A stretch of 64,000 bases of DNA from an uncultured Streptococcus sp. (GTDB taxonomy: Bacteria > Bacillota > Bacilli > Lactobacillales > Streptococcaceae). The notes beneath the pieces are model-generated. The model had not been told where the DNA came from. It saw nothing but the letters and a program-made list of their open reading frames with translations, and did not search any database. This document shows positions 32,262 to 47,613 of this stretch, in pieces. The DNA lies in the NCBI GenBank assembly GCA_963521035.1, contig CAUQTL010000001.1, forward strand, positions 25,063 to 89,062, read 5' to 3'. Position 1 is the first letter of the stretch; each line of letters opens with the position of its first letter. The position numbers were made by a program, and so were the translations under genes.

Positions 32262-32285
32262 GCTTTATCACACCTTTCACAGATG

Positions 32286-32372
32286 ATTATATACTATATC
32301 TTAGAAAAAGTACAATTTTTTTGTGCAAAAATTAAAAAAACAGTTGACAACAGAAAAAATATTGTGTATTAT
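32286..32372. promoter_or_regulatory. Divergent genetic-switch promoters
   Basis: Rightward TTGACA(32344)-17-TATTAT(32367); leftward TTGTAC-18-TATAAT (32315 to 32286). Confidence 0.75.
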
Positions 32373-32378
32373 ACAAAT

Positions 32379-32451
32379 CAAGCATAGAAAAACTGTGCAT
32401 AACCCCCTCCAACCTTTCACACTTTCAATCTATTCATGGAGGGGATTTTTT
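32379..32451 (+). ncRNA. cro-leader hairpin/attenuator with antisense copy of the repressor start region
   Basis: CCCCTCCA...TGGAGGGG stem followed by T-run; 32422-32438 identical to 32246-32262. Confidence 0.6.
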
Positions 32452-32467
32452 AGAAAGGGGGAAACCT

Positions 32468-32668
32468 ATGAGCAAACTACGAGGCTATCGGGTTATGTTA
32501 GGACTAACTCAACAACAGATGGCGGACAAGCTAAAAATTTCTTTGCAGTCATACAACAACAAAGAATTAGGTAAAACGCCATTTAACGACAAGGAACGCC
32601 TAGCGATTAAGTCAATGGTTGCAGAAGTCAAATCAGATATAACCATAGATGAACTATTTTATAGCTAG
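32468..32668 (+). CDS. Cro/Str-like HTH protein
   Basis: 66 aa XRE HTH (GLTQQQMADKLKISLQSYNNKELG), first gene of rightward operon. Confidence 0.85.
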   Translation: MSKLRGYRVMLGLTQQQMADKLKISLQSYNNKELGKTPFNDKERLAIKSMVAEVKSDITIDELFYS

Positions 32669-32683
32669 AAAGGCAGGCAAGCA

Positions 32684-33454
32684 ATGAAGAGGAACTATAC
32701 AAGGGTCATCGATGAAATGCGAACCACTCACGGGCTGAACTTGGTAGCTATTGGCCAACGGATAGGCATAGATCCCCGAACAGTTGGCAAGTGGGCACAG
32801 GGCAAACATAAGCCCAACAAGGAAAGCAGAAAAAGACTAAATCAGTTATACAGAGAGGTTAAGCAAGATATGACAACACAGCAAAAAGATTTATGTGATT
32901 TTTTTGGGAACTTCTATCCCAAAGGAGAACCACACAACAAAAAGGAAGTTTTGGAAGTTGTAACAACTCAACGATTTGGATCTAAACACTTTGATGTTTA
33001 TGGAGACATTCAAAATCCGTTATTTGTAGCGGTAGAGGTTGCTGAGATGATTGAAATCCAAAACACCACGGATTTACTAAAACGGGTAGATGATGATGAA
33101 AAGCTGACCTATGTAATATCTAGGGCAGGTCAAAAAAGAGAAATGAATATGCTGACAGAGTTCGGAGTCTATGAAGTTTTATCGCAGTCACGCAAACCAC
33201 TAGCAAAAGAGTTTAAAAAAGTGGTCAAGCACATTCTGAAAGAAATCCGACTAAATGGCTACTACATGGCTGGGGAACTGGTGGAAGAACCACAGACCAC
33301 TATAAAAGCCCCTGATACGTTGGCAGAGGCAGAGCGGTATTATATCGATACACTAGCCAAAGCCATTGCAGAGGCTCAAAATATGGACGAGAAGAGCCGT
33401 CTGACAAGCAAGTTAACCAAATTCATGCAGGAGGTAGAACCACAATGGAACTAG
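32684..33454 (+). CDS. HTH plus BRO-N antirepressor-like protein
   Basis: N-terminal HTH; PLFVAVEVA, LTEFGVYEVL, SRKPLAKEFKK, IRLNGYY BRO-N motifs. Confidence 0.82.
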   Translation: MKRNYTRVIDEMRTTHGLNLVAIGQRIGIDPRTVGKWAQGKHKPNKESRKRLNQLYREVKQDMTTQQKDLCDFFGNFYPKGEPHNKKEVLEVVTTQRFGSKHFDVYGDIQNPLFVAVEVAEMIEIQNTTDLLKRVDDDEKLTYVISRAGQKREMNMLTEFGVYEVLSQSRKPLAKEFKKVVKHILKEIRLNGYYMAGELVEEPQTTIKAPDTLAEAERYYIDTLAKAIAEAQNMDEKSRLTSKLTKFMQEVEPQWN

Positions 33455-34071
33455 TCTACATGGACGGTAAAAAAGAGCCGTATACACTGAGCAGTATTGT
33501 GGCAGAATGCACGGGATTGCAACATCACACAATCACCAAGACGATCCGCAAACATCAAGCAAGATTTGAACAGTTCGGAAAGGTTGGATTTAAAATCCAA
33601 GCTATGGAGAGTGGCCAGAATACCAAGGACTATATTTTGAATGAGCAACAAGCAACCTTGTTAGTTACATTCTTAAAGAACACCGAGCAAGTGGCCAACT
33701 TCAAAACCAACCTGGTCAAAGCATTCTTTGAAATGCGTGATGAACTTTCTAAGTTCCGTATGCAGAGGGCGCTAGAAAAGCCAAAAAGAAAAACACTGCA
33801 TGACAGTATTGAGAACTGGGAGGCAAAACCCAAGCACGCGCATAGCACCATGAACAACTTGCTACTGAAAGCAGTAACCGACAGGAACGCTAAGCAGTTA
33901 AGGGAAGAACGTGGGGGCTATAATGGCATCGATAGCTTGACAAGTGACGAGCTGGAGCAATACCAGGCATTTGAAGACATGGTCATAGCTATGATTGGCT
34001 TGAATATGAGTTACCAAGAAATCAAGGCTATGGCATTCAGAAATAAAAAAACACGCCAAAGAAGCGCGTGA
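33445..34071 (+). CDS. Rha-family phage regulatory protein
   Basis: YILNEQQATLLVTFLKNT, FKTNLVKAFFEM. Confidence 0.82.
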   Translation: MELVYMDGKKEPYTLSSIVAECTGLQHHTITKTIRKHQARFEQFGKVGFKIQAMESGQNTKDYILNEQQATLLVTFLKNTEQVANFKTNLVKAFFEMRDELSKFRMQRALEKPKRKTLHDSIENWEAKPKHAHSTMNNLLLKAVTDRNAKQLREERGGYNGIDSLTSDELEQYQAFEDMVIAMIGLNMSYQEIKAMAFRNKKTRQRSA

Positions 34072-34077
34072 TAGCAA

Positions 34078-34201
34078 CAAAAAAAGGCTTAGCAATAACC
34101 ACACCGCAGAGCCTTTCACACTAACACTAAAACGAATTTAACAAAGCAGGCAAGCTATTATCAAAGAGGTTTTAGTAAAGATTTATACCTAGATTATAGC
34201 A
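34078..34201 (-). ncRNA. Putative antisense small RNA
   Basis: Minus-strand TGCTATAAT (34201 to 34193) and terminator AAGGCT...AGCCTTTTTTT ending near 34078. Confidence 0.5.
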
Positions 34202-34204
34202 TAT

Positions 34205-34484
34205 TTAGGGCAATTTGACCATACGGAGAGCGCCAACTCTTAAAACTGGTACTTTCTCACGCTTTCAATTTGGCGACTCTGAGCGTGAAGATATCGTCTA
34301 TACGAAACAACTCAAAAAGCCCCACGCTCTCAAAACTTTGGCGAGTCTGAGCGTGAGGAACTTCATTGCAAGAAAAACTGTATAAGAAACAACCATTCAA
34401 AATCCCCACACTCGCCATCGCCCAACTTTGAGTGTGAGGATATCTAGTATAAGAAAAAAAGCATTAAAAGCTCTTAGGGCAATT
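34205..34484. repeat. Three-hairpin array bracketed by an 11-bp direct repeat
   Basis: CACGCT/CACACTC...GAGCGTG/GAGTGTG stems at 34257, 34323, 34407; TTAGGGCAATT at 34205 and 34474. Confidence 0.7.
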
Positions 34485-34512
34485 ACACAACATAGAAACA
34501 GAGGTAATAAAC

Positions 34513-34965
34513 ATGGAAGAAACAACATACGAGAATTTGACTAGACGTATAGACAGAATTAGCGCAGAAATGCTAGAAATTAGCGAAAAAAATGATCTAT
34601 TCGGACTTTCTTTGTTGGCAAATCAGATAAAGTCTATCAAAGAAGATTTACACCGCTTACTTTGGATTGAACTTCCTGAATTGAATGACAGCCATAAAAT
34701 CGAAGCACTCTCTAAAAGAACTACGGGAATGTTTTTCAACCCTGGTATTTTTGAAATGGACGCTATGCGACAAGCATTCTTTAAACGCCAAGCTAAGCAC
34801 TTTTTTGACAATGAAGCAGAGCAACAGGCGTATATAGAACATGCTGAAAAGGAGTATTTAGAGGCTACTATAACCTTAAAAGATATTCTTTTTAACTCTA
34901 AAAAAGGAACTCAAAAAGCAAATAAAAGTTGTCTTATAGAGAAGTTTGAGGAGGCAATGCAATGA
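34513..34965 (+). CDS. Hypothetical satellite protein
   Basis: GAGGT RBS, 150 aa, operon context. Confidence 0.7.
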   Translation: MEETTYENLTRRIDRISAEMLEISEKNDLFGLSLLANQIKSIKEDLHRLLWIELPELNDSHKIEALSKRTTGMFFNPGIFEMDAMRQAFFKRQAKHFFDNEAEQQAYIEHAEKEYLEATITLKDILFNSKKGTQKANKSCLIEKFEEAMQ

Positions 34966-35162
34966 CACTAGACCTAAACAATATGACACAATCAGAATTT
35001 GATGAAGTAATGGCTGAAATCAAGTCAGAACGCCCCAGCGTCTTTCAGTTTATTGCTGATTTTTTAGATAGAAAGGTAACACCCGAAGAGGTGGATGAGT
35101 TTTTGAAGATGGAGCGAACTGATCAAGTGGACTATATCAAGAATTACAAAGCGAGGGCATGA
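34962..35162 (+). CDS. Hypothetical satellite protein
   Basis: GGAGG RBS, ATGA overlap with upstream stop. Confidence 0.7.
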   Translation: MTLDLNNMTQSEFDEVMAEIKSERPSVFQFIADFLDRKVTPEEVDEFLKMERTDQVDYIKNYKARA

Positions 35163-35163
35163 C

Positions 35164-35379
35164 ATGAATGAATTAGATTTGACCAATACACAGGCGGTAA
35201 TCTGTATGGTTGTATTGATTGGCTTACTGCTTTATTTAAACCACCGAGACCGCAAAAAAAGCGCCCAATTTGAGCGAGAAAACCAACAGACGATAGAAAC
35301 ACCTAGCGAGAGTTTAAGCCCTGATTATGGGCGATATATCCAGCTTGCAGGGGTAAGAGTTTACGGAGGAATGAAATGA
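35164..35379 (+). CDS. Small single-TM satellite protein
   Basis: Hydrophobic AVICMVVLIGLLLYL segment; coupled to neighbours. Confidence 0.65.
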   Translation: MNELDLTNTQAVICMVVLIGLLLYLNHRDRKKSAQFERENQQTIETPSESLSPDYGRYIQLAGVRVYGGMK

Positions 35380-35669
35380 GTTACACAATGAATTTATACC
35401 CTGATATTGAAAAAATATCAGACGAACCTTATTTTACTAAAGATATTTTTCTAGCTACGTGTATGGACAATGCAACAAAGTTAGCTGTAACTATGGGCTT
35501 GTTGACAAAACAAACGTTGGATTTAGAGACTAAGACAGCTATTTTGAAAACCCTTGATACCATTATAGAAACTCAAAAAGATATTTTGCGAGGGGTAGCG
35601 AGCGGACAAATAACCTTTTTGAATAAAAGCAAAGGAGAGGAGGAACTGAATGAGCCTATCGGAGAATGA
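35376..35669 (+). CDS. Hypothetical satellite protein
   Basis: GGAGG RBS, ATGA overlap. Confidence 0.65.
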   Translation: MSYTMNLYPDIEKISDEPYFTKDIFLATCMDNATKLAVTMGLLTKQTLDLETKTAILKTLDTIIETQKDILRGVASGQITFLNKSKGEEELNEPIGE

Positions 35670-35991
35670 TAAGCGAGTCTTAAGACTAATAAAAGTGGGG
35701 GCTGAGAACTCCATAACAGGGGCAGAAATAAGCCTGATCACTAAGCTAGCAGAAAGAACCGTGCAAGATATTATCAGCCGTCTAATCACGCGCCATAGCG
35801 TTCCTATTGTTGGGGTTCGACACGGAACATTTAGAGGATATTTTATCCCAGCTAACAAAGAGGAGCTACTGGACGGAGCAAAAACATTTTACAATCAGAT
35901 ACGAGAAGAAGAAAAGCGCCTAGCAGTGTTGATGAATAGCGACCTAGAAAGCTACAAAGAAACCTTGAAGGGGGCGGACGAATATGTTTAG
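35650..35991 (+). CDS. Winged-HTH satellite protein
   Basis: ITGAEISLITKLAERTVQDIISRL...GYFI pattern. Confidence 0.7.
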   Translation: MSLSENDKRVLRLIKVGAENSITGAEISLITKLAERTVQDIISRLITRHSVPIVGVRHGTFRGYFIPANKEELLDGAKTFYNQIREEEKRLAVLMNSDLESYKETLKGADEYV

Positions 35992-36259
35992 CCTAAGCCG
36001 AGAAAGCGAGCAAGACCTAGCGCATGGCATTCTGGAGGTAGTGGAAAGATACCTGGAAGCGCGTGATACAGTCAAACCACGACTGACAGGTTTAATATCA
36101 GCCCAGGAAGTCATGGACGAGTTAGATATAAAATACATGACACTCCAAAAATGGGAAAAAGCAGGGCTAAGACGATACCATCCACCGCTTGAAGATACAA
36201 GAAAGGTTTACTATAAAATAACTGACATCTGGAAGTTTCTGGGGGTAGAAAATGGGTAG
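35984..36259 (+). CDS. MerR-like HTH protein (possible excisionase)
   Basis: LISAQEVMDELDIKYMTLQKWEKAGL...KVYY. Confidence 0.65.
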   Translation: MFSLSRESEQDLAHGILEVVERYLEARDTVKPRLTGLISAQEVMDELDIKYMTLQKWEKAGLRRYHPPLEDTRKVYYKITDIWKFLGVENG

Positions 36260-36398
36260 ATACATGACAGAGCCAGCTTATGCTGGTATGAAGTTAGCCA
36301 AGGAAGATAAAACCAAGGTCAGACGCCCAAAGTTGAAGCAACTCAAAGAACGGAAACAACTGAAGAAACTGAGGAAGAAACGTCGGAAAGGGAGCTGA
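36252..36398 (+). CDS. 48-aa highly basic peptide (absent from ORF track)
   Basis: MGRYMTEPAYAGMKLAKEDKTKVRRPKLKQLKERKQLKKLRKKRRKGS fills the gap; stop 1 nt before primase ATG. Confidence 0.6.
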   Translation: MGRYMTEPAYAGMKLAKEDKTKVRRPKLKQLKERKQLKKLRKKRRKGS

Positions 36399-36399
36399 T

Positions 36400-37260
36400 A
36401 TGACGATTTACGAGGCTAGAGGCTTTCAGGGTAATCTTGTCTATCCATTTGATAAAATTGAGCCGTTCCAGTACATTGAACGCTTTAAGCCTTTGGTAGT
36501 CCCTGAAGGGGCAAACATTGAAGAATTTAAACGTACACAAGCGCCTTACTGTATCAGTGGGAAAGTGACGCCAGAAAAGCATGGCAGTTACAAGCGAAAC
36601 AACTCCAGTCTAATCTATCGGGATTTGATTTTCCTTGATTATGATGATATACAGGGGACGACTGAGGGCTTTATAAAGGCTGTTTCTAGCGCTTTATTTG
36701 GCTACTCCTATATCTTATACCCAACTATTAAGCATAGCTTAGAAAAGCCCCGTTTTCGCCTTGTAGTGAAGCCTGATGATGTGATGAATGAGGCAACCTA
36801 TAAGCAGGTAGTGAAAGAGATTGCTGATAAGATTGGGCTACCCTTTGACATGGCCAGTCTAACCTGGTCACAACTCCAAGGGCTACCAGTAACAACAGGC
36901 GACCCAGAAAGTTATCAAAAGATTGTGGAGCATGGTCTAGATTATCCAGTCCCCAAGGTTGAACCAAGAGCGAAGCAAGGAACTACTGAGCTTTACAAGC
37001 CTAGAGCAAGTGGCCAGAGGTCAATGACTATGAGGATCATTGACACGCTTTTTAATGGCTTTGGAGACGAGGGAGGGCGCAACGTAGCACTGACACGCTT
37101 TGTAGGCTTACTCTTTAATAAGTGGGTTGATTGTGACCTAGAGACCGCCTATGAACTTACTAAGATAGCCAATAGCGTGACAGTTGAACCATTGCCTATT
37201 GAAGAGCTAGACCGCACTTTTAGCAGTATAGCACGGGCTGAATATAGAAAGAGAGGATAG
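36400..37260 (+). CDS. Primase-like protein with PriCT-1-type C-terminus
   Basis: LIFLDYDD, HSLEKPRFRLV, GGRNVALTRFVG, PLPIEELDRTFSS. Confidence 0.82.
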   Translation: MTIYEARGFQGNLVYPFDKIEPFQYIERFKPLVVPEGANIEEFKRTQAPYCISGKVTPEKHGSYKRNNSSLIYRDLIFLDYDDIQGTTEGFIKAVSSALFGYSYILYPTIKHSLEKPRFRLVVKPDDVMNEATYKQVVKEIADKIGLPFDMASLTWSQLQGLPVTTGDPESYQKIVEHGLDYPVPKVEPRAKQGTTELYKPRASGQRSMTMRIIDTLFNGFGDEGGRNVALTRFVGLLFNKWVDCDLETAYELTKIANSVTVEPLPIEELDRTFSSIARAEYRKRG

Positions 37261-37264
37261 AACC

Positions 37265-38920
37265 ATAGAACTAGAAGAATTAGGAAACCTAGAAAGTGAA
37301 ATCTTAGAGGCGCGTGAAAGCGAAGATAAGCACTTTAAGACTTTCAAAGGTGTTAGGGGACAGCTTATCAAAGAGTGTCAAGAAATCAAGGACAAGGCTT
37401 ATCAGCAAGCTTATGAAGAAGTTATGGCAGACAGCAAACACCTTGAAAATGTAAAGGCAGGCAGGTTGACCGAGGCCCAGCATGAAGAACTAGCCCAGCA
37501 GAAAGGCGAGGAAAAGAGCAGTAAGGCCTTACCAACTAATCCGCTGGGAGTTGCTATTATATTAAAAAAGTACGTCCGATTTATTAGAATTAAGCCAGAG
37601 GCACAAGGGCAAAAAGCCCCATTATATTTCTATAATCCTGATTTTGGTATCTGGTTAGAGGATAATGAATTTTTGCAAGATCTTATTTCTGTCATTTATC
37701 CAAACGCAACGGAAAAACAGGCATTTGATACGCTTTATAAAATAGCTAGACAGAGCCAAATGAGGGAAATCCAAGGCAATTATACTGTAATTGGGAAACA
37801 GCTATACAATGCTAAGACAGGCATTTTTGAAGAAACGACACCAGAGATTACAGCAACAAGAAAGATAAAAACAGGTTATAGCCCTGGAGCAGAAGAGCCT
37901 ATAATTAACGGCTGGAAGCCGACAGCTTGGCTTTTAGAGTTGTTTGACGGTGACAAGGAGCTTTATAACCTTGCTATCCAGATTATAAAAGCAAGCGTCA
38001 CAGGGCAGTCTTTGCAAAAAATCTTTTGGCTTTTCGGTGAAGGTGGAACAGGAAAAGGAACTTTTCAGCAGCTACTTATAAACCTAGTTGGTATGGAAAA
38101 TGTGGCAAGTTTGAAGATCACTGGTTTAACAAAAAGTCAATTTTCAACGTCTATATTATTGGGAAAGTCGCTTGTAATCGGTGATGATGTACAAAAGGAC
38201 GCAGTAATTAGAGACACTTCAGATATGTTTAGCTTAGCAACAGGCGACATAATGACCATAGAGGACAAAGGGAAACGCCCTTATAGCATACGCCTTAATA
38301 TGACGGTAGTACAATCTTCTAATGGTTTACCAAGAATGAACGGGGATAAATCAGCTATTGATAGGCGATTTAGAATTTTACCTTTTACCAAAATATTTAA
38401 AGGTAATCCTAACAAGGCTATCAAAGACGATTACATTAACCGCAAAGAAGTGCTGGAGTACCTGGTTAAGTTGGCTATTGAAACACCAATCGCTGACATT
38501 AACCCTACGAAGTCTATTGAAATACTTGAAGAACACCATAAGGACATGAACCCCGTTATTGATTTTGTTTCTAAGTTTTTTACTGATGAATTGACAAGTG
38601 AGTTTATTCCTAATAGTTTTGTCTATCACGTTTGGAAAGGTTTCCTAGAATACTATGGTATTAAAGAAAACAGGTCAGAAATGGGCTTACATCGAGAAAT
38701 CAAAAGCAACCTGCCTGAAGGTTTCGCAGTTGGCCAGAAGGTTATCCCTGCAGGGCAACAGATCCATAAAGGTTTTTATCCTAAAGAAGACCTACCGCCG
38801 TTTGCAAGCGTAGCCTATGCTAATGGTAGGGCAACACCCGAAAAGCAGAAAAAGCCAAAGAATGAACGCGGGTATTACAACCATTGGCCAGAGTACAAAA
38901 AGAGAAGGAAAAGAAAATAA
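37265..38920 (+). CDS. SF3 (D5/P4-like) helicase / Rep; possible ATA start 53 codons upstream of first ATG (37424)
   Basis: Walker A GEGGTGKG, IGDD, SSNGLP, AIDRRF. Confidence 0.85.
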   Translation: MELEELGNLESEILEARESEDKHFKTFKGVRGQLIKECQEIKDKAYQQAYEEVMADSKHLENVKAGRLTEAQHEELAQQKGEEKSSKALPTNPLGVAIILKKYVRFIRIKPEAQGQKAPLYFYNPDFGIWLEDNEFLQDLISVIYPNATEKQAFDTLYKIARQSQMREIQGNYTVIGKQLYNAKTGIFEETTPEITATRKIKTGYSPGAEEPIINGWKPTAWLLELFDGDKELYNLAIQIIKASVTGQSLQKIFWLFGEGGTGKGTFQQLLINLVGMENVASLKITGLTKSQFSTSILLGKSLVIGDDVQKDAVIRDTSDMFSLATGDIMTIEDKGKRPYSIRLNMTVVQSSNGLPRMNGDKSAIDRRFRILPFTKIFKGNPNKAIKDDYINRKEVLEYLVKLAIETPIADINPTKSIEILEEHHKDMNPVIDFVSKFFTDELTSEFIPNSFVYHVWKGFLEYYGIKENRSEMGLHREIKSNLPEGFAVGQKVIPAGQQIHKGFYPKEDLPPFASVAYANGRATPEKQKKPKNERGYYNHWPEYKKRRKRK

Positions 38921-38922
38921 GA

Positions 38923-39192
38923 ATTTTATACACTTTACACAGTAGGGCAAAAATTTTATACACTTAAAAACGTTGTCATATCAAGGGTTTTATACACTTT
39001 ATACGAAAAACACGGAAATAAAAAAATTTCCTTATATCATGTTTCAGAAATAGAGTCCCTATTATCCCTATATATATTTTTATTTTAATGTATAAAGTGT
39101 ATAAAACAATAGCAAAACCCTTGGTACTACTGACTTTATTTTTTATACACTTTTAAAAACAAGTGTATAAAATTTGTAAGAAGCGTATAAAA
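38923..39192. promoter_or_regulatory. Satellite replication origin (iterons)
   Basis: Several TTTATACACT direct and AGTGTATAAA inverted copies around an AT-rich core right after rep, as in SaPI-type origins. Confidence 0.8.
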
Positions 39193-39235
39193 AAGGGGAC
39201 AGAAAAATCAATTAAGTACAAAAGGAGTAAAAAAC

Positions 39236-39412
39236 ATGAAAATTAAACTATTTTTTTATTACAAATGGCAACAATCACTAGAAAATTTTGAACAGGAAGT
39301 AAATGATTTTATGGCGACCGTGCAGGTAATTGATGTAAAACATTCAACCGCAACCGTAGGAGATAGTGATGGTATGGGTGCGATTGCTGGTTTGCTAGTA
39401 TTATACAGATAA
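39236..39412 (+). CDS. 58-aa protein, DUF2758-like (absent from ORF track)
   Basis: AAGGAG RBS; MKIKLF...FEQEVNDFMATVQVIDVK...LVLYR. Confidence 0.7.
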   Translation: MKIKLFFYYKWQQSLENFEQEVNDFMATVQVIDVKHSTATVGDSDGMGAIAGLLVLYR

Positions 39413-39495
39413 CAAAATGGGGTAGATAGTACCGACCCCCTTGCAATGGTGTAACTACTAGTGACACCCTTAAAAACAGAAAGAGGAAAAACAAC

Positions 39496-40026
39496 ATGAC
39501 ATTAAAAACATTTTCGGATAAAGCAAAAACATTTACTTTCACTTACTATTTTTGTGATCAGGCGACCGCTCAAGTAGCAGGTCACGCGCTACTGGGATAT
39601 ATGACTGGGACATATTGCCAGCCTGTAATCTCATTGACCTACAAGGATAAAGGCACGCTAGTAGCTGAGTATGTGGAAGATCACAAGCTAAACAAGACCT
39701 TTAAGCGTATTTGTGACAGTTTTAAAGACTACCACAAACAACCAGGAGAGGTTGAAGCATTTGAAGAACGTTACAAACGGGAGCGCGTGCTTCAACTCAA
39801 AGAGTCAGAGGACTTTGAGAGCTTGCTGAATAAGATCACAGACTACGAGCTGGAACTATTAGACTATGCTGATCGCTTGCTTTCTGATACGCCTATCCCT
39901 ATGGACTCTATGACTGCTTTTGGTACGTTGGAAAAGCTAGGCGATGAAAGTATTAGCCTACTCCAAAAGTTGGACGTAGAGGGCGAATATAAAGGACTTG
40001 CTGGTTATACAGAGCATTTGAAGTAG
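39496..40026 (+). CDS. Hypothetical satellite protein
   Basis: GAGG RBS; followed by hairpin AGGGGGAGCAATCCCCTTTTT. Confidence 0.7.
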   Translation: MTLKTFSDKAKTFTFTYYFCDQATAQVAGHALLGYMTGTYCQPVISLTYKDKGTLVAEYVEDHKLNKTFKRICDSFKDYHKQPGEVEAFEERYKRERVLQLKESEDFESLLNKITDYELELLDYADRLLSDTPIPMDSMTAFGTLEKLGDESISLLQKLDVEGEYKGLAGYTEHLK

Positions 40027-40097
40027 AACACAGGGGGAGCAATCCCCTTTTTGCTATCAACCCAATAGTTTTGGGTTTTTCCATATAGGGGGAAATA

Positions 40098-40601
40098 ATG
40101 AAGCAGTTAGCAATAGAAACAATCACTAAACCAATGAAGCTGAGAGGAATATCTAAGGGTATAGCCGAGTTGGACGGTCAACGTTTAGAGATTGATTTGG
40201 ATAATTTAATGATTGATTTTGGTGGAGAGTCATTTGAATTAGACAGAATAGCAGGAACTAAGGGAGGTAATCGATATTTCTTTCTTTGCCCTGATTGTGG
40301 GAGACGGTGCAGGTTGCTTTATAAACGGTATTTATATTTTAGTTGCGGTACTTGTCTAGATATCCACAAGAGCACTCTGAACCGCAGTAAAACGGATTGC
40401 CAATACTACTGGGAGCTTGCACTAAAAGAAGCCAGAAAGGTAGAACCAGGGTGGAGTCCTAGACGTGGTAGATATATGTTTGATGGTTTCCCTGAAAGAC
40501 CAAGGTATATGAAACGTGACAGGTATCATAAGCACTATAAGAAGTTTTTGAAGTATATTGAAAAAGGGGATAGATTTTGGCTGAATGGTTCGAGATTGTA
40601 G
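40098..40601 (+). CDS. Zinc-ribbon satellite protein
   Basis: YFFLCPDCGRRCRLLY...CGTC. Confidence 0.7.
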   Translation: MKQLAIETITKPMKLRGISKGIAELDGQRLEIDLDNLMIDFGGESFELDRIAGTKGGNRYFFLCPDCGRRCRLLYKRYLYFSCGTCLDIHKSTLNRSKTDCQYYWELALKEARKVEPGWSPRRGRYMFDGFPERPRYMKRDRYHKHYKKFLKYIEKGDRFWLNGSRL

Positions 40602-40625
40602 GATAATATGAAGTAGTGTGTAATT

Positions 40626-40943
40626 TACCAAACGAACAAATACTACATATTAGACGGTTTAAATGTTAAAAAAGCTAGATATATCAAGGATTTAAGTAAG
40701 TAGAGCGTTCCAAAAAGGGTGCGGTAAACGTTCCAAAAAAGGGTGAGGTAAGGATTAGGTTATATATAAAAAGTACAAGGTTAGTACAAGGTCACATACT
40801 TCAAAATACTAAGGTTTTACAAAGGTACAGGGCTTTTTTCTAGTGATAGAACCCCAAGGTTACCACAAGGTAGAGAGGTTTACCGAGGGTTAGAAAAGGT
40901 GAGGTTTTTGTGAAGTAGTGGCAAAAAAAATACCAAACGAACA
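40626..40943. repeat. Phased direct-repeat region upstream of TerS-like gene
   Basis: CGTTCCAAAAA(A)GGGTG twice; AAGGT pairs 11 bp apart at 40777/40788, 40811/40822, 40856/40867; TACCAAACGAACA at 40626 and 40931. Confidence 0.65.
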
Positions 40944-40961
40944 CCGTAGAAAGGATGCAAT

Positions 40962-41276
40962 ATGGAACGTGATAGCCGAGGGAGATTTTTACCAGGCAAC
41001 CAAGTAGCAAAAGGCAACAGGGGCAACAGAAAGCCAAAATATGGCAATAGCAACGCTTTGAAGCATGGACTACGCAGAGGATATACTGGACTGTTACCAA
41101 GCCGAGAAGGTGGGGTATCTATATATAAAAATGGTGCATACCTTGGAACACTACCAGACAAGTATTTTAACCATTCTGAAGATGGAGCGCTTTGGGTAGA
41201 TTATAGCGCGTGTCAGTATCTTGTATTAGTTTGTGGCTTGCCTGAAAGTATGTTTAGCGAACCAGAAGAATGGTAA
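40962..41276 (+). CDS. Small protein with terminase-small-subunit-like motif
   Basis: RDSRGRFLPGN...GNSNALKHGL resembles the GNxNAxKHG motif of TerS proteins; AAAGGA RBS. Confidence 0.55.
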   Translation: MERDSRGRFLPGNQVAKGNRGNRKPKYGNSNALKHGLRRGYTGLLPSREGGVSIYKNGAYLGTLPDKYFNHSEDGALWVDYSACQYLVLVCGLPESMFSEPEEW

Positions 41277-41316
41277 GGGTCTATATACTTGAACTCCGAG
41301 CGAACGCCGAGAAAGT

Positions 41317-41805
41317 GGCTATCTCCCCCCTATCATTTATCAAGCAGATAAGCGGAGTTTTTACCCCTCTTATTTCCGATTTACTCCTTGCAGAATGACA
41401 AGCAGATAAGGACGACAATAAGCCTTCTTAATTACTTACAAAACGATAGGAAGTTAAGACGAATTTAAAAGCCCCTTATTTTCGTTTTTCTCCTTGTCAA
41501 ACGGTAACGGTAAGGAAATAAGACAGGAAATAACATCGCTTATTTTGATTTTGCTCCCTGAAAAACTGTAAGGAGATAAGGAGACTTATTAGCTTCCTTA
41601 ATTTGGATTTTCTCCTTACAAAATGATAGGGAAATAAGAACTAAAATAACTCCCCTTATTTTCCTACCAAATGACAGGGAGATAAGAGCGGTTTAAAAGT
41701 CTGTTATTTTGGATTTGTTGCTTACCAAATGATAAGCAGATAGGCAAAGAACTAACTTGCCTTAATTGCTTATCAAACCATAAGGAGATATGGGGGCTAT
41801 CTCCC
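41317..41805. repeat. Array of nine palindromic 12-8-12 units with fixed 16-bp unique spacers
   Basis: TAAGGAGATAAG-like half-sites at 41341, 41399, 41447, 41511, 41569, 41627, 41675, 41733, 41781. Confidence 0.85.
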
Positions 41806-41969
41806 TCCCCACGCGCTTCTATGAGCTTCACCCGTCATTGTACATTTTTTCTCACGGGAAAGCATTTGAAGCTAGAGCGAACATAGAGAAATAGCAAAAA
41901 AAGCCAGCACAGGGCTGACTCCTTTGTGATATTCCGATAAAAATATTATATCATAGAGGAGGCCGAGGC

Positions 41970-42389
41970 ATGACACCAGAGCAGGTAAAAGAAAAACTAG
42001 AGGGCGTTAAGTGGATAAGCAAGGAAATCAAAGGCTTATATTTGGAATTGGAGGCCCTGGAAGGTGGTATTATCAAAAAGCCAACACTAAGCCATAGCAG
42101 GGTACAGGCAAGCAGAGAGAACAAGACAGAGAACAATCTTATAAGTGTTCTAAAACTAAAAGAGGATACGCTTCAGAGGATTGAGCGACTTACTGAAGAG
42201 AGAATGGAAATATCTAGGCTGATTGATAAGTTGGTCAATCCGCTTGAGCGTTCTGTTCTAAGACTTTTTTATTTGAATAATCTTGTAGCTTTGGAAGTAG
42301 CTGAAGAAATAGGAAAATCAAGAACAAATGTATACTTAATTAGGCAAAAAGCTATAGAACACTTGAGCAAGGTGGAAGGAGCGAACTAA
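41970..42389 (+). CDS. RinA/ArpU-like late transcription activator (sigma region-4-like HTH)
   Basis: LIDKLVNPLERSVLRLFYL...VAEEIGKSRTNVYLIRQKAI. Confidence 0.72.
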   Translation: MTPEQVKEKLEGVKWISKEIKGLYLELEALEGGIIKKPTLSHSRVQASRENKTENNLISVLKLKEDTLQRIERLTEERMEISRLIDKLVNPLERSVLRLFYLNNLVALEVAEEIGKSRTNVYLIRQKAIEHLSKVEGAN

Positions 42390-42781
42390 TGGAGCTGGAT
42401 AAGTTTAAAACGATGATGAACGTCAGAGAGCGGATGACTTACTTTCTACGTTTCCAGAGGATGGCAGGAAGTGAAAACCAAGTTACGATAGATGAAGAGG
42501 CTTGGGAACTTATCTTACCTGATCAGTGGAATTTGAGCGGTGAGCATGAAAAAGCAATCCGTGAGGGATTGGAGATATTCGCCCAAGACATCAACAGCAT
42601 AGAGAACAAACGAGCCAGAAAATACTTTATTATCCATTATTGCTACATGAGGAAGAAAACAATGAGTGAATGCGTAGAGATGGCAGGTACTAGCTCCACT
42701 AGCTACCACCGATACAAACAGATAGCCGTCTTAAACTTTGCGAGAATCCACCAGAACGGAGAGCTAGAAGTGTATAAGTAG
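42389..42781 (+). CDS. ArpU-like transcriptional regulator
   Basis: C-terminal HTH GTSSTSYHRYKQIAVLNFA. Confidence 0.6.
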   Translation: MELDKFKTMMNVRERMTYFLRFQRMAGSENQVTIDEEAWELILPDQWNLSGEHEKAIREGLEIFAQDINSIENKRARKYFIIHYCYMRKKTMSECVEMAGTSSTSYHRYKQIAVLNFARIHQNGELEVYK

Positions 42782-42829
42782 GCAAATGTAGGCTGAGACT
42801 TCATATTTGCCCATTGTATAAAGATAATA

Positions 42830-42858
42830 TTGAAAAGTTTGCGAAAAAGGATTATACT
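42830..42858 (+). promoter_or_regulatory. Sigma-A promoter of small accessory gene
   Basis: TTGAAA-17-TATACT. Confidence 0.65.
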
Positions 42859-42934
42859 GAAGTTGTAGCACAAGAGAAAACTCTTGAATTATTATCTCAA
42901 GCATTCGACTTTGAATTTGGAAGGATTGAATGAT

Positions 42935-43093
42935 ATGGTTAAAAAAGATATTTATGATTGGCCAGAAGGCGAAGACGACAATCTGGATGAATTGTTAAAA
43001 AAAGCCTATGAACGAAATAAGAATAAAACTGTTGAGGAGTTAGATGCCGAATGGGATGAATTTGTCAAGAGTCTAAAACTTGAAACGATTTAA
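42935..43093 (+). CDS. 52-aa acidic accessory (moron) protein
   Basis: ATG after GGAAGGA; own promoter and terminator (43096-43124). Confidence 0.6.
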   Translation: MVKKDIYDWPEGEDDNLDELLKKAYERNKNKTVEELDAEWDEFVKSLKLETI

Positions 43094-43157
43094 ATAAGCA
43101 CCTAGAACAATCTAAGTGCTTTTTGATATGAGTTATTTTTGCCTTTTATATACTACG

Positions 43158-43258
43158 TGGTATAATGAACCTATCAGCAATAAAAAAAGCACGTTTGACC
43201 GTGCTAGTTTCTTGCCTGCTGAACTCGTCAAATCTTAGCCCTTTTGTGGGGCTTTTTT
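43158..43258 (+). ncRNA. Putative ~85-nt small RNA at the right end of the island
   Basis: TGGTATAAT extended -10, AGCACG/CGTGCT hairpin, CTTGCCTGCTGA motif, AGCCC...GGGCTTTTTT terminator. Confidence 0.6.
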
Positions 43259-43379
43259 GCTCCCCTTTTTGCGTACTTTGGGGGAGCAAGTATTAAAAAG
43301 TAATGTTAGTATTTTTTGTTAAAAAGCGCGTGATATAAGGGTCAGGAAGCCCTAAGGAAACCTAAAATAATAATTCTTT

Positions 43380-43397
43380 TATTATGTAGAAAAATGA
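43380..43397 (+). repeat. Right att core
   Basis: TATTATGTAGAAAAATGA, direct repeat of 28963-28980. Confidence 0.85.
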
Positions 43398-43475
43398 CTA
43401 TCATTTGTGTATGTATTTTCTGTCTCAAAAGCTATATACTGAAAATGAAACTTGTTTGAAAGAGGATACTGCACG

Positions 43476-44756
43476 ATGATTTATTCAAAAGAAATTGTTA
43501 GAGAATGGCTAGATGAAGTGGCAGAGCGAGCTAAGGACCATCCAGAGTGGGTGGATGTTTTCGAGCGTTGTTACACAGACACCTTGGACAATACGGTTGA
43601 AATCCTAGAAGATGGTTCAACCTTTGTGCTCACAGGAGATATTCCTGCTATGTGGCTTCGAGATTCGACAGCTCAACTCAGACCCTACCTTCATGTGGCT
43701 AAAAGAGATGCCCTCCTGCGTCAGACCATTGCAGGTTTGGTCAAACGTCAGATGACCTTGGTACTCAAGGATCCTTATGCCAATTCCTTCAACATTGAGG
43801 AAAACTGGAAGGGGCACCACGAGACCGACCATACAGACCTTAATGGCTGGATTTGGGAACGCAAGTACGAGGTGGACTCGCTTTGCTATCCTTTGCAGTT
43901 GGCTTATCTCCTCTGGAAAGAGACTGGCGAGACTAGTCAGTTTGATGAGACTTTTGTCGCAGCGACCAAGGAAATCCTCCATCTGTGGACGGTGGAACAA
44001 GACCACAAGAACTCTCCTTATCGTTTTGTCCGAGATACGGACCGCAAGGAAGACACCTTGGTAAATGATGGCTTTGGACCTGATTTTGCAGTGACAGGTA
44101 TGACTTGGTCAGCCTTTCGTCCGAGTGATGATTGCTGTCAGTATAGTTACTTGATTCCGTCAAATATGTTTGCAGCAGTAGTCTTGGGTTATGTGCAAGA
44201 AATCTTTACAGAATTGAATCTAGCTGATAGCGAGAGTGTCATCGCAGACGCTAAACGTCTGCAAGAAGAGATCCAAGAAGGTATCGAAAACTATGCTTAC
44301 ACCACCAACAGCAAGGGCGAAAAGATTTATGCCTTTGAAGTGGATGGTCTAGGAAATGCCAGCATCATGGATGATCCAAACGTTCCAAGTTTGTTGGCTG
44401 CGCCTTATCTGGGCTACTGCGATGTCAACGATGAAGTGTATCAATCAACTCGTCGTACCATTCTGAGCCCTGAAAATCCCTACTTCTACCAAGGAGAATA
44501 CGCTAGTGGTCTCGGAAGTTCTCATACCTTCTATCGCTATATCTGGCCAATCGCCCTTTCTATCCAAGGTTTGACAACAAGAGATAAGGCAGAGAAAAAA
44601 TTCTTGCTGGATCAGCTGGTTGCTTGCGATGGTGGTACAGGTGTTATGCACGAAAGCTTCCACGTGGATGACCCAACTCTCTACTCTCGTGAATGGTTCT
44701 CTTGGGCTAACATGATGTTCTGTGAATTGGTCTTGGATTACTTGGATATCCGCTAA
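43476..44756 (+). CDS. GH125 exo-alpha-1,6-mannosidase
   Basis: TGDIPAMWLRDS, WERKYEVDS, FRPSDD, WFSWAN. Confidence 0.93.
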   Translation: MIYSKEIVREWLDEVAERAKDHPEWVDVFERCYTDTLDNTVEILEDGSTFVLTGDIPAMWLRDSTAQLRPYLHVAKRDALLRQTIAGLVKRQMTLVLKDPYANSFNIEENWKGHHETDHTDLNGWIWERKYEVDSLCYPLQLAYLLWKETGETSQFDETFVAATKEILHLWTVEQDHKNSPYRFVRDTDRKEDTLVNDGFGPDFAVTGMTWSAFRPSDDCCQYSYLIPSNMFAAVVLGYVQEIFTELNLADSESVIADAKRLQEEIQEGIENYAYTTNSKGEKIYAFEVDGLGNASIMDDPNVPSLLAAPYLGYCDVNDEVYQSTRRTILSPENPYFYQGEYASGLGSSHTFYRYIWPIALSIQGLTTRDKAEKKFLLDQLVACDGGTGVMHESFHVDDPTLYSREWFSWANMMFCELVLDYLDIR

Positions 44757-44869
44757 TACTCTTCGAAAATCTCTTCAAACCACGTCAGCTTTATCTGCAA
44801 CCTCAAAGCTGTGCTTTGAGCAACCTGCGGCTAGCTTCCTAGTTTGCTCTTTGATTTTCATTGAGTATA
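44754..44869 (-). repeat. BOX element with internal deletion
   Basis: Reverse-complement boxA and boxC ends with shortened middle. Confidence 0.85.
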
Positions 44870-44967
44870 AGGAGCTCGCTTTCGCTTCACTGATTCTTGT
44901 CAGAATCACAAATTTACATTTAAAACGTTAACAATAAAAATTTAAATTTAGAATGAGGTTTTACTTC

Positions 44968-47613
44968 ATGGAAAATGTTGTCGTACATATTATCTCACAT
45001 AGTCACTGGGATCGTGAGTGGTACTTGCCTTTTGAAAGCCACCGTATGCAGTTGGTGGAATTATTTGACAATCTCTTCGATCTCTTTGAAAATGACCCTG
45101 AGTTCAAGAGCTTTCACTTAGATGGTCAAACCATTGTCCTTGATGACTACTTGGAGATTCGCCCTGAGAATCGCGACAAAGTCCAACGATATATTGACGA
45201 AGGCAAACTTAAAATTGGTCCTTTTTACATCTTGCAAGATGACTACTTGATTTCAAGTGAAGCCAATGTCCGTAATACTCTTATCGGTCAGCAGGAGGCT
45301 GCAAAATGGGGCAAATCAACTCAGATTGGTTACTTCCCAGATACCTTTGGAAATATGGGGCAAGCGCCTCAAATCCTTCAAAAATCAGGCATTCACGTGG
45401 CAGCCTTCGGTCGTGGTGTGAAGCCGATTGGGTTTGATAACCAAGTCCTCGAAGATGAGCAGTTTACTTCCCAGTTTTCAGAAATGTACTGGCAGGGTGC
45501 GGATGGTAGCCGTGTCCTCGGTATCCTCTTTGCCAACTGGTACAGTAATGGGAATGAAATTCCAGTTGACAAGGACGAGGCCTTGACCTTCTGGAAACAA
45601 AAACTGGCAGAAGTGCGTGACTACGCTTCGACCAACCAGTGGTTGATGATGAACGGCTGTGACCACCAGCCTGTTCAGAAAAATTTGAGTGAAGCCATTC
45701 GTGTGGCAAATGAACTCTTCCCAGATGTAACCTTTGTTCATAGTTCTTTTGATGAATATGTCCAAGCCGTGGAAAGTGCCCTACCAGAGCAGTTATCAAC
45801 GGTTATAGGTGAGTTGACCAGTCAGGAAACAGACGGCTGGTACACACTTGCCAACACTTCTTCATCTCGTATTTATCTCAAACAAGCCTTCCAAGAAAAT
45901 AGCAACCTCCTAGAGCAAGTTGTAGAACCCTTGACGATTATCACTGGCGGTCATAACCACAAGGACCAGTTGACCTATGCTTGGAAAACTCTTTTGCAAA
46001 ATGCGCCGCATGATAGCATTTGTGGTTGTAGCGTGGACGAAGTTCATCGTGAGATGGAAACTCGTTTTGCCAAGGTTAATCAAGTCGGAAACTTTGTTAA
46101 GAGCAATCTTCTTAACGAGTGGAAGGGTAAAATTGCTACGGCTAAGGCTCAAAGTGACTATCTCTTTACTGTCATTAACACAGGCTTGCATGATAAGGTT
46201 GATACTGTCAGCACAGTGATTGATGTTGCGACTTGTGATTTCAAGGAATTGCACCCAACAGAGGGTTACAAGAAGATGGCTGCTCTTACCTTGCCAAGCT
46301 ACCGTGTGGAGGACTTGGATGGTCGTCCTGTAGAGGCTAAAATCGAAGATCTCGGAGCTAATTTTGAGTATGATTTACCAAAAGATAAGTTCCGCCAAGC
46401 TCGTATTGCTCGTCAAGTGCGCGTGACCATTCCAGTTCACCTAGCGCCACTTTCTTGGACAACCTTCCAATTGCTGGAAGGAGAACAAGAACACCGCGAA
46501 GGCATTTACCAAAACGGGGTGATTGATACACCGTTTGTAACGGTAAGTGTGGATGACAATATCACAGTCTATGACAAGACAACTCACGAAGCCTATGAAG
46601 ATTTTATCCGCTTCGAAGACCGTGGTGACATCGGAAACGAGTATATCTATTTCCAACCCAAAGGAACAGAGCCAATCTATGCAGAGCTTAAGGGCTACGA
46701 GGTCTTGGAAAACACAGCTCGCTATGCTAAAATTTTGCTCAAACATGAATTGACTGTACCTGTCAGTGCGGATGAAAAGCTAGAAGAAGAGCAAAAAGGT
46801 ATCATCGAGTTCATGAAGCGTGAAGCTGGACGTTCAGAAGAGTTAACAAGTATTCCTCTGGAAACTGAGATGACTGTCTTCGTTGATAATCCACAAATCC
46901 GTTGCAAGACTCGCTTTACTAACACTGCCAAGGATCACCGTATCCGTCTCTTGGTCAAGACTCATAACACGCGTCCAAGCAATGATTCTGAAAGCATCTA
47001 TGAGGTGGTGACACGACCAAACAAACCAGCAGCTTCATGGGAAAATCCTGAAAATCCTCAACACCAACAAGCCTTTGTCAGTCTGTATGACGATGAAAAA
47101 GGGGTGACTGTATCCAACAAGGGATTAAATGAATACGAAATCCTTGGAGACGACACCATTGCAGTGACTATTTTGCGTGCATCAGGTGAGCTAGGTGACT
47201 GGGGTTACTTCCCAACACCAGAAGCTCAATGCTTGCGTGAGTTTGAAGTTGAGTTTGCGCTTGAATGCCACCAAGCCCAAGAACGCTTCTCAGCTTTCCG
47301 TCGTGCTAAGGCCTTGCAGACACCATTTACCAGCCTTCAGCTTGCTAGACAGGAAGGAAGCGTGGCTGCGACTGGTAGCCTCTTGAGCCATTCTGTTCTC
47401 AGCATACCACAAATCTGTCCAACAGCCTTTAAGGTAGCTGAAAATGAGGAGGGCTATGTTCTTCGTTACTACAATATGTGTAGTGAAAATGTACGTGTAC
47501 CGGAAAGCCAACATCTCTTCCTTGACCTACTTGAACGACCATACCCAGTTCATAGAGGCCTCATTTCACCACAAGAGATTCGTACAGAATTCATCAAAAA
47601 AGAAGAAATTTAA
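44968..47613 (+). CDS. GH38 alpha-mannosidase
   Basis: HSHWDREWY, LDGQ, PDTFG, NGCDHQ, HDSICGCS. Confidence 0.95.
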   Translation: MENVVVHIISHSHWDREWYLPFESHRMQLVELFDNLFDLFENDPEFKSFHLDGQTIVLDDYLEIRPENRDKVQRYIDEGKLKIGPFYILQDDYLISSEANVRNTLIGQQEAAKWGKSTQIGYFPDTFGNMGQAPQILQKSGIHVAAFGRGVKPIGFDNQVLEDEQFTSQFSEMYWQGADGSRVLGILFANWYSNGNEIPVDKDEALTFWKQKLAEVRDYASTNQWLMMNGCDHQPVQKNLSEAIRVANELFPDVTFVHSSFDEYVQAVESALPEQLSTVIGELTSQETDGWYTLANTSSSRIYLKQAFQENSNLLEQVVEPLTIITGGHNHKDQLTYAWKTLLQNAPHDSICGCSVDEVHREMETRFAKVNQVGNFVKSNLLNEWKGKIATAKAQSDYLFTVINTGLHDKVDTVSTVIDVATCDFKELHPTEGYKKMAALTLPSYRVEDLDGRPVEAKIEDLGANFEYDLPKDKFRQARIARQVRVTIPVHLAPLSWTTFQLLEGEQEHREGIYQNGVIDTPFVTVSVDDNITVYDKTTHEAYEDFIRFEDRGDIGNEYIYFQPKGTEPIYAELKGYEVLENTARYAKILLKHELTVPVSADEKLEEEQKGIIEFMKREAGRSEELTSIPLETEMTVFVDNPQIRCKTRFTNTAKDHRIRLLVKTHNTRPSNDSESIYEVVTRPNKPAASWENPENPQHQQAFVSLYDDEKGVTVSNKGLNEYEILGDDTIAVTILRASGELGDWGYFPTPEAQCLREFEVEFALECHQAQERFSAFRRAKALQTPFTSLQLARQEGSVAATGSLLSHSVLSIPQICPTAFKVAENEEGYVLRYYNMCSENVRVPESQHLFLDLLERPYPVHRGLISPQEIRTEFIKKEEI

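Follow-up and report, generated by a model that had tools for sequence, protein, structure and literature searches.

The 64,000-nucleotide stretch of DNA analysed here, referred to as the window, originates from an uncultured Streptococcus sp. (contig CAUQTL010000001.1 of assembly GCA_963521035.1) and carries a satellite island similar to the phage-inducible chromosomal islands (PICIs). Near the end of this island, a palindrome array of about 0.5 kb of non-coding DNA occupies positions 41317 to 41805. With somewhat less than even confidence, the array is tentatively read as a cis-acting, phased protein-binding DNA scaffold placed between the putative packaging-signal end of the island and a late-regulator gene. 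The lengths of its parts are kept while their sequences diverge, it is present at a single locus, and it is conserved among satellites irrespective of their replication (Rep) and integrase (Int) types. A conserved non-coding stretch whose geometry is preserved to the base probably plays a working part in the satellite life cycle.

The array is built in the order R arm, 16-bp spacer, inverted L arm (12 or 22 bp) and 8-bp linker, which is repeated eight times and closed by a terminal R arm. Nine R half-sites (TAAGGAGATAAG, with up to three mismatches) start at 41341, 41399, 41447, 41511, 41569, 41627, 41675, 41733, and 41781, giving periods of 58/48/64/58/58/48/58/48, and GGCTATCTCC brackets the array at both edges, at 41317 and 41795. 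A preliminary description of the same DNA had listed these features. All nine of its half-site coordinates were reproduced by a half-site scan, and the eight spacers, the two L-arm lengths, the 8-bp cores, and the periods read exactly as it claimed. The bracketing sequence was also recovered at both positions, but it is absent in one satellite lineage, and the 14-bp core with a 6-bp duplication exists but is peculiar to the window strain. The spacers, which had been called unique, are so within the array; they are not mutually unrelated, belonging to one family in two orientations, and they recur in the same order in other species. The components are listed below, with units named after the ten-type series A to J to which they belong.

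41289–41314, plus strand: left copy of a flanking direct repeat, TTGAAC..GAGCGAAC..GAGAAA, 73% alike to the right copy
41317–41340, plus strand: left bracket GGCTATCTCCCCCC and leader TATCATTTAT, the latter being the linker consensus inverted
41341–41398, plus strand: unit B, 58 bp (R arm, 16-bp spacer, 22-bp L arm, 8-bp linker)
41399–41446, plus strand: unit C, 48 bp
41447–41510, plus strand: unit D, 64 bp in the window, its linker carrying a 6-bp duplication
41511–41568, plus strand: unit E, 58 bp
41569–41626, plus strand: unit F, 58 bp, with a spacer close to the reverse complement of the C-type spacer (11/16)
41627–41674, plus strand: unit G, 48 bp
41675–41732, plus strand: unit H, 58 bp
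41733–41780, plus strand: unit I, 48 bp
41781–41808, plus strand: terminal R arm TAAGGAGATATG and right bracket GGCTATCTCCCTCC, with GGAGATA/TATCTCC as a tight inverted repeat
41866–41891, plus strand: right copy of the flanking direct repeat

Each unit is a quasi-palindrome of 40 bp, or of 50 bp where a 10-bp turn sits in one arm, and is marked by TAAG/CTTA boxes. In each, the R arm is followed by an A/T-centred 16-bp spacer and the L arm, and successive units are joined by directional 8-bp linkers with the consensus nnAAAnGA. Two paralogue classes occur, namely the 48-bp units A, C, G, I, and J, and the 58-bp units B, D, E, F, and H. Across paralogues, the R arm nAAGnAnATAAG, the L arm CTTAWTT..., and the linker consensus are kept. 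G/C-rich at their edges and A/T-rich in the middle, the spacers derive from one sequence by divergence and occur in either orientation: paralogous spacers have only 4–12 of 16 positions in common, and when compared as reverse complements, B and J agree at 12/16 and F and C at 11/16, with unrelated pairs at about 4–6. The longer unit equals the shorter one plus a 10-bp insertion that splits the consensus L arm (CTTAT, 10 bp, CTCCTTG), and a 22-bp L arm without its middle ten bases is the exact complement of the R consensus.

The constraint on length becomes apparent when the array is compared with its relatives. The parsed set comprises 31 loci, of which 30 are genome loci (including the window itself, L001) and one is the satellite MissG2 (L031). 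Among 220 typed units, 212 measure exactly 48 or 58 bp, as the preliminary description would lead one to expect from its claim that lengths are kept while sequences diverge; four of the remainder are mis-splits of the parser and four are true variants (47, 47, 64, and 66 bp). The L arm begins exactly 16 nt past the R arm in 211 of the 212 units of standard length. No fixed indel was found in any of the ten spacer or ten linker types despite the deep divergence of the paralogues, which suggests that the spacing is under constraint. Only in the window does the D unit measure 64 bp; another 20 D units were counted, all of 58 bp, and contigs of relatives lack the 6 nt at 41500 that represent its duplication. 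The 10-bp insertion corresponds to one helical turn and keeps the helical face, as would be expected for DNA recognition. Together with the conserved lengths, it makes a phased DNA–protein scaffold the best surviving reading. A decayed coding repeat, which the preliminary description had named as an explanation that would undo its own, was considered and rejected: the array is overlapped only by minus-strand open reading frames (ORFs) of 45 and 55 aa, no open frame or codon periodicity was found beyond these, and 58 is not a multiple of three. The short open frames present in other arrays span only runs of 48-bp units.

The geometry of the array is not explained by chance. Fourteen of the 94 half-site matches on both strands of the window fall inside these roughly 450 bp. 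Correctly spaced pairs (L-8-R or R-16-L, scored with a weight matrix) number eight in the array and none elsewhere in the window; in the whole host assembly (1.57 Mb, 80% complete), only four weak-scoring pairs are added to these eight. The confinement of spaced pairs to the array is in keeping with a dedicated cis site and not with a single operator among those of a regulon. A/T content has a periodicity of 12.0 bp (48/4, 58/5) with a power of 16.4, compared with a maximum of 11.5 among 278 control windows. Simple planar curvature is not claimed, as the dominant A/T period is 12.0 bp and not 10.5 bp. No dispersed copies were detected in the assembly, in which the array is a single locus. Assignment to the dispersed repeats, such as repetitive extragenic palindromes (REP), bacterial interspersed mosaic elements (BIMEs), BOX, or miniature inverted-repeat transposable elements, was therefore rejected, as these are defined by multiple copies.

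Over positions 40900–42400, the window matches the sequence of Streptococcus satellite phage Javan332 (MK448435.1) with 100% identity. With this 1.5-kb region as query, 80 records of a phage collection were matched, all from Streptococcus, and among the matches listed, most are Javan satellites, with S. mitis, S. oralis, S. pneumoniae, and S. pseudopneumoniae as hosts. A 551-nt query has a partial or full match in 55 of 300 Streptococcus species genomes. The junction pattern was found in five of 400 Lactobacillales genomes, all of them Streptococcus (four of 61, in addition to the window's own), and in none of 339 genomes from 81 other genera. Named hosts are species of the mitis group, complemented by a two-unit remnant in S. 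anginosus. This remnant is located in Javan62 (L069, 1703–1775), where the two units have I- and J-like spacers and precede mazF/mazE, which lie on the opposite strand, and a gene annotated as terS beyond them.

All 31 parsed arrays are ordered subsets of the one series A–J. The full series is present at eight loci, five as parsed and three split by the parser, and examples of subsets are BCDEFGHI (the window), ACDEHIJ, ABGHIJ, AIJ, and HIJ. A comparison of unit number, order, and spacers between strains, as proposed in the preliminary description, reveals a variable number (2 to 11 units across arrays) and a fixed order with fixed spacers. Neither reordering nor novel spacers were seen in the 31 loci, although some units of short or divergent arrays fall below the typing threshold. 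At least five units are present at 23 of the 30 genome loci, and one to three units at the other seven. Variation consists of whole-unit loss and arm exchange, the latter seen in L021 as an L arm that is part B and part F, and in L018 as arm ends of the F type. Five loci are decayed remnants beside rpsD (L026–L030, in G238, G246, G172, G076, and G276), in each of which a C-terminal integrase fragment, the promoter region, and a truncated start of the DUF1492 gene accompany two to three units (H, I, J) whose arms are degenerating.

This pattern of loss raises the possibility that the array has no present function, being an old quasi-palindromic tandem duplication that undergoes gene conversion between arms, slowly erodes by unit deletion, and is carried along by a satellite backbone that is successful. 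Ordered deletion subsets of one ten-unit series and chimeric arms that reflect exchange between units are what it would produce, spacer inversions would fit template switching at quasi-palindromes, and arms, spacers, and linkers are about equally variable among orthologues. It also accommodates the two- to three-unit remnants that persist in decayed islands, as well as the related satellite Javan2, in which both GAGCGAAC motifs lie about 60 bp apart next to a DUF1492 gene with no array between them. However, neutral erosion does not readily account for ten spacers and ten linkers devoid of fixed indels at such paralogue divergence, nor for the 23 genome loci with at least five units and the eight, from genomes of different species, that keep all ten types. 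Moreover, one phage lineage and two satellite lineages whose neighbours differ have each retained the array independently. An absence of function is considered rather unlikely.

The phage lineage is represented by two true-phage contigs from one metagenome, G301 (L038/L046, at least seven units) and G300 (L041/L045, 2.5 units), whose arrays are diverged. These phage-borne arrays follow directly after the lysin terminator, between convergent genes. In G300, the array is succeeded by a 36-nt hairpin resembling the attachment (att) site of a serine integrase and then by a serine integrase gene. All 36 records of the GenBank phage collection that match the phage-borne array are satellites, and a comparison with the 300 genus genomes recovered satellite arrays only, with at most 77% identity. 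A scan of a virus collection for the junction pattern returned eight loci, five of which represent one unrelated sequence with a single chance match.

A row of hairpins could also operate at the RNA level, where it would form the 3' portion of the upstream operon's transcript, or be reached by read-through, and would stabilise or insulate transcripts, serve as a target of a double-strand-specific RNase, or act as a sponge for an RNA-binding factor. Both strands of the array fold far better than shuffled sequences (z of -6.9 and -6.6). However, the two strands fold equally well, as those of any DNA palindrome array would. Pairing between arms was analysed in the Watson–Crick sense, with 95/120 positions paired within the own unit, 94/120 at the junction, and 94.8 ± 2.4 with permuted partners; no partner-specific covariation is therefore detectable (permutation test, P = 0.56 and 0.69). 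In orthologues, 38 single changes disrupt Watson–Crick pairs, and compensated double changes number zero within the own unit and three at the junction. Wobble-type mismatches slightly favour the plus strand (63–84 vs 37–44), but the corresponding bias among orthologue changes, 18 vs 12 between strands, is not significant. Nothing in the covariation, compensation, or strand-bias tests favours a structured RNA, the power of all three being limited by the shallow divergence.

Position and transcription bear on the same question. In two satellite lineages, the array starts 12–40 bp past the stop codon of the upstream ORF, and in the phage lineage it lies between convergent genes behind the lysin terminator, both being sites typical of 3' hairpin elements. 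The array has no promoter of its own: beyond the promoter region of the DUF1492 gene, neither a sigma-70-like promoter nor an intrinsic terminator was found flanking it. Related arrays are held in contigs of three RNA-sequencing libraries from three studies at a depth of 2–9, and one of these contigs, of 837 nt, extends from the upstream region through the array into the start of the DUF1492 gene. Strand and ends are not given for these contigs, the same libraries also contain contigs of 22–23 kb, and DNA carry-over is possible. In the phage lineage the terminator precedes the array, and Rfam 15 gave no match in 41317–41805 at E values up to 1. Hairpin stability alone requires neither an exact 16-nt loop nor a one-sided 10-nt insertion; DNA helical phasing is the more natural explanation for the exact 16/8 spacings and the 10-bp arm variant. 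An RNA-level function is accordingly regarded as unlikely overall, albeit as the most credible of the alternatives.

The island that hosts the array extends from about 28968 to 43397, between 13-bp direct repeats. It starts with an integrase, a RhuM-family gene, a helix-turn-helix (HTH) repressor, and Bro- and Rha-type genes, continues with small ORFs, a PriCT primase, a D5-type helicase, and three ORFs without an assigned family, and ends with a 104-aa ORF, the array, and two DUF1492 genes. The features that matter for the interpretation of the array are as follows.

38919–39192: candidate satellite replication origin, directly after the D5-type helicase gene, with iterons around a stretch of 24% G+C
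40700–40910, plus strand: AAGGT-repeat region upstream of the array, candidate mimic of the packaging signal (pac/cos) of a helper phage
40962–41276, plus strand: 104-aa ORF with a sub-threshold match of about 28 residues to TerS families
41897–41961, plus strand: hairpin and inverted-repeat promoter region of the DUF1492 gene, promoter-like at 41926–41954, with a minus-strand terminator-like hairpin at 41925–41897
41970–42389, plus strand: DUF1492/LtrB-like gene of the late-regulator type
42389–42781, plus strand: DUF1492/ArpU-like gene of the late-regulator type

A DUF1492 gene is located downstream of the array in 26 of the 31 loci (tblastn), the other five being the decayed remnants by an integrase fragment and rpsD; where a downstream gene can still be detected, it belongs to this family. 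Proteins of the DUF1492 (LtrB) family are stated to act as activators of the terS or late promoter in phages (PMC3753634). The promoter at 41897–41961 is flanked by a 14-bp inverted repeat (CTCCTTTGTGATAT ... ATATCATAGAGGAG) and is common to true phages at 80–95% identity, including IPP24, Javan308, phiARI0285-1, and others. In these phages, the corresponding region is found upstream of a small gene preceding terS, and no array was present at this region in the phages examined. The small gene is divergent from mazEF in IPP24 and Javan308. Between the upstream small gene and terS, Javan326 (L067, 1370–1790) and IPP24 (L033, 3600–3950) contain tRNA-like segments with a T-arm-like GGTTCGA(T/G)TCC.

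Upstream of the array, the gene content is variable. The 104-aa ORF is present in four of 31 loci and a 167-aa ORF in 17 of 31, and atlas searches with both returned unnamed clusters only. In lineage 2, which is without the AAGGT region, the upstream position is taken by a 124-aa ORF of no known family and an 83-aa ORF. The 124-aa ORF was considered as a TerS and rejected, having no Pfam, PHROG, or NCBIfam match and resembling a phage TerS only at E = 0.019; its homologues are called 'replication protein' in some records. At the array edges, most arrays with several units, in lineage 1 as in lineage 2, keep the leader TATCATTTAT ahead of their first R arm. Lineage-1 loci have the flanking motif 42–43 bp ahead of the array, lineage 2 is without it, and the left copy of the motif alone is matched at 91–100% identity in numerous further Streptococcus genomes. 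Immediately to the right of the array, the minus strand contains GCGCGTG at 41811–41817, the Chi sequence of lactococci and streptococci, which is kept in relatives; a nuclease moving rightwards from the packaging-signal side would encounter it beyond the array. Elsewhere in the island, three non-coding 35-nt direct repeats occur at 34276–34459, the minus strand of which has a sub-threshold Rfam match to the S. pyogenes small RNA Spy779816 (41.8 bits vs a gathering threshold of 67; E = 4.4e-4).

In the phased scaffold that we favour, a sequence-specific dimeric or oligomeric protein would sit on each module, successive contacts would be held in helical register by the constant 16/8-bp spacings together with the 10-bp variant, and two to eleven modules would build one cooperative nucleoprotein complex. 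Protein binding, cooperativity, and role are what we infer. In the satellites, this complex would be positioned between the packaging-signal end and the LtrB/DUF1492 promoter, where, at a guess, it may organise the junction in cis. It could be a cosB-like accessory platform that aids the helper terminase in capturing satellite DNA, or it could shield the late-regulator promoter from upstream read-through. As a guess, we would rank a packaging-accessory platform above promoter insulation, followed by docking of a host factor and finally a decoy. The arms fit a common consensus without partner-specific covariation, as independently selected half-sites would, and a unit number of 2 to 11 with a kept order suits an additive or cooperative platform. 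The position beside the AAGGT region in lineage 1 and beside a DUF1492 gene in 26 of 31 loci is likewise counted in favour of such a scaffold.

Several observations weigh against the scaffold. Apart from the DUF1492 genes, no satellite gene is both constant and closely linked; even these are only 32–38% identical between some satellites whose arrays are 85–95% alike. No matching sites were found in the candidate helper Javan326 (41 kb) or in the regulator–terS regions of IPP24 and Javan308, so neither a helper TerS nor a helper regulator is an obvious binder. The single R-like matches in Javan326 are all on the plus strand and resemble ribosome-binding sites. The array of the phage lineage, known from the two contigs of one metagenome, follows a lysin terminator far from any packaging site, and the lineage-2 satellites have no AAGGT region. 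Javan2 has no array, which makes it dispensable for that backbone. Arms, spacers, and linkers vary about equally among orthologues (0.02–0.07), so the comparison, shallow as it is, does not demonstrate purifying selection on the arms, and the RNA-library contigs of three studies make transcription possible.

The nucleoprotein scaffold had been among the functions suggested in the preliminary description, and it stands as a general reading; the two specific versions offered there do not. The adjacent 'TerS-like' protein is not supported as the partner, as its ORF occurs in so few loci and its resemblance to TerS is confined to about 28 residues below threshold. A sponge for a DNA-binding protein of the helper is not supported either, as no counterpart sites were found in the three phages examined.

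The AAGGT region itself has links to phages. A 36-nt segment at 40797–40832 is an exact match inside the Terminase_2 terS gene of phage Javan326, and TTACCACAAGGTA at 40860–40872 matches the cos sequence of S. thermophilus phage DT1, as quoted in PMC13376191, at 10 of 13 positions. In lineage 1, the nearest AAGGT motif is found about 115–450 bp before the first R arm. Judged by sequence, the array is not a core packaging signal: array sites were sought as a phage-shared packaging sequence, and zero spaced pairs were found in Javan326 (41 kb) and in the regulator–terS regions of IPP24 and Javan308.

A tandem repeat array in a replicating island might also serve as the satellite replication origin or as iterons for copy control, and PMC12416852 describes episomal replication of phage-related chromosomal islands (PRCIs). 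However, a separate candidate origin similar to those of Staphylococcus aureus pathogenicity islands (SaPIs) is placed directly after the D5-type helicase gene. It contains four direct (38924, 38954, 38988, and 39141) and three inverted (39092, 39158, and 39178) copies of the iteron TTTTATACACTT, and its G+C content is 0.24, compared with 0.34–0.35 in the array, which is found 2.4 kb further on. The MissG2 helicase is only 27% identical to that of the window, yet the arrays are closely similar; in satellite G302, the helicase region has no detectable DNA similarity and the array about 80%. As the array is alike where helicases differ and the iterons lie elsewhere, an origin is the least probable of all the explanations considered.

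The preliminary description had further proposed sites for a tyrosine recombinase or a processed repeat-spacer RNA, and both are disfavoured here. Arms of 12 bp around an asymmetric, directional 8-bp linker do have the geometry of lox/dif-like recombinase sites, and unit-precise deletions occur. The candidate att core TGTAGAAAAATGA, a 13-bp direct repeat at 28968–28980 and 43385–43397, has AAAATGA in common with the linker. This core, however, is without CTTA/TAAG arms, satellites with integrases of only about 54% identity (tblastx) have arrays that are about 80% identical, and deletion junctions fall in the homologous arms. The host flank of attR, CTATCATTT, resembles the array leader, which may be coincidence. 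As regards guide arrays of the CRISPR or tandem interspaced guide RNA (TIGR) type, the spacers are ordered paralogues that are fixed across loci and come in two orientations, which argues against a CRISPR-like array. They have no match outside the array in the host genome at up to one mismatch, and the 1–3 matches per spacer at two mismatches are close to chance. A scan of 22 island ORFs (30433–47613) revealed no cas, Nop-domain, ParA/ParB/ParR-type, or extra recombinase families. A TIGR-Tas array was rejected since no Nop-domain Tas is present among these ORFs and the units are 48/58 bp long, compared with about 36 nt in TIGR-Tas arrays. Recombinase sites and guide arrays are, taken together, very improbable.

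The array might instead act as single-stranded DNA, with hairpins that would function during transformation uptake or in late replication of the rolling-circle type, as a signal for priming or second-strand synthesis or as a nuclease barrier. The junction pattern is limited to Streptococcus (four of 61 genomes and the window's own vs none of 339 in other genera), the named hosts belong to the mitis group apart from the S. anginosus remnant, and the array is independent of the Rep, Int, and packaging modules. In PMC13376191, satellites of S. thermophilus are reported to be able to move by natural competence. Partner specificity of the hairpins is absent, however, and strict spacer lengths are not obviously needed. 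We regard this role as improbable.

The array could also be a portable docking module that is read by a host factor common to mitis-group streptococci, rather than by a protein of the satellite or helper. By analogy with the strong gyrase site of phage Mu and the par locus of pSC101, candidates would be a strong topoisomerase/gyrase site or a loading site of the condensin type, which would serve the topology or segregation of the small excised episome. If true, this would explain why satellites that differ in helicase, integrase, and neighbours share the array unchanged, why it also travels into a phage, and why host and examined phages hold no further copies of the site. The proposal is nevertheless doubtful.

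In kind, the array resembles known tandem arrays of binding sites, such as sopC, iterons, and BIMEs. It differs from them in its diverged, invertible interiors, in two unit lengths that are one helical turn apart, and in its independence from replication and integration modules. The centromere sopC of the F plasmid consists of about ten tandem units of roughly 43–58 bp, each with a short inverted repeat as the protein-binding site; it acts in cis and its unit number can vary. Tandem units, a cis element, and a variable unit number are thus common to both, but sopC has near-identical direct repeats and adjacent sopA/sopB genes, whereas the interiors of the array are diverged and partly inverted and its units come in two lengths. 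A partition centromere was rejected: the tandem repeats are there, and the scanned island ORFs include no ParA/ParB/ParR-type family. BIME-2/REP arrays also combine alternating palindromic units, separators of fixed length, a variable copy number, and a location at the 3' ends of genes, and roles at the DNA level (protein binding) and at the RNA level (stabilisation) have both been proposed for them. BIMEs, however, exist in hundreds of dispersed copies, whereas the array is a single genomic locus confined to satellites and one phage lineage. Pneumococcal BOX elements are modular non-coding repeats of the mitis group with variable modules of about 45 bp and strong potential for secondary structure, but they are dispersed over the chromosome, and the array is not known to resemble them in sequence.

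Origins of the SaPI type are likewise repeat arrays in a phage-inducible island, but the SaPI-like iterons of this island are those at 38919–39192, and the array does not track the helicase type. The cosB site of phage lambda comprises several phased protein-binding elements beside a packaging signal, a layout similar to that of the array, whose own neighbouring signal is a candidate and phage-derived. Mimicry of pac sites by satellites is described in PMC11417361. Unlike cosB or a pac mimic, the array has no equivalent sites in the phages examined, is absent from Javan2, and in the phage lineage is found by the lysin and integrase genes. A search of the literature within reach found no published description of the array, in agreement with the statement of the preliminary description that none was known in streptococcal satellites; database records leave the arrays unannotated or overlay them with a 'hypothetical protein'.

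In pneumococci and related bacteria, satellites of the PRCI/PICI type are common; they are stated to replicate as episomes and to affect competence as well as phage spread (PMC10602874, PMC12416852, and PMC6813308). The present analysis separates three signals of such an island that are easily confused, namely the iteron origin, the packaging-signal mimic, and the array. The variable unit number of the latter represents a natural dosage series, and knowledge of the binder would provide a handle on the packaging, regulation, or maintenance of these satellites.

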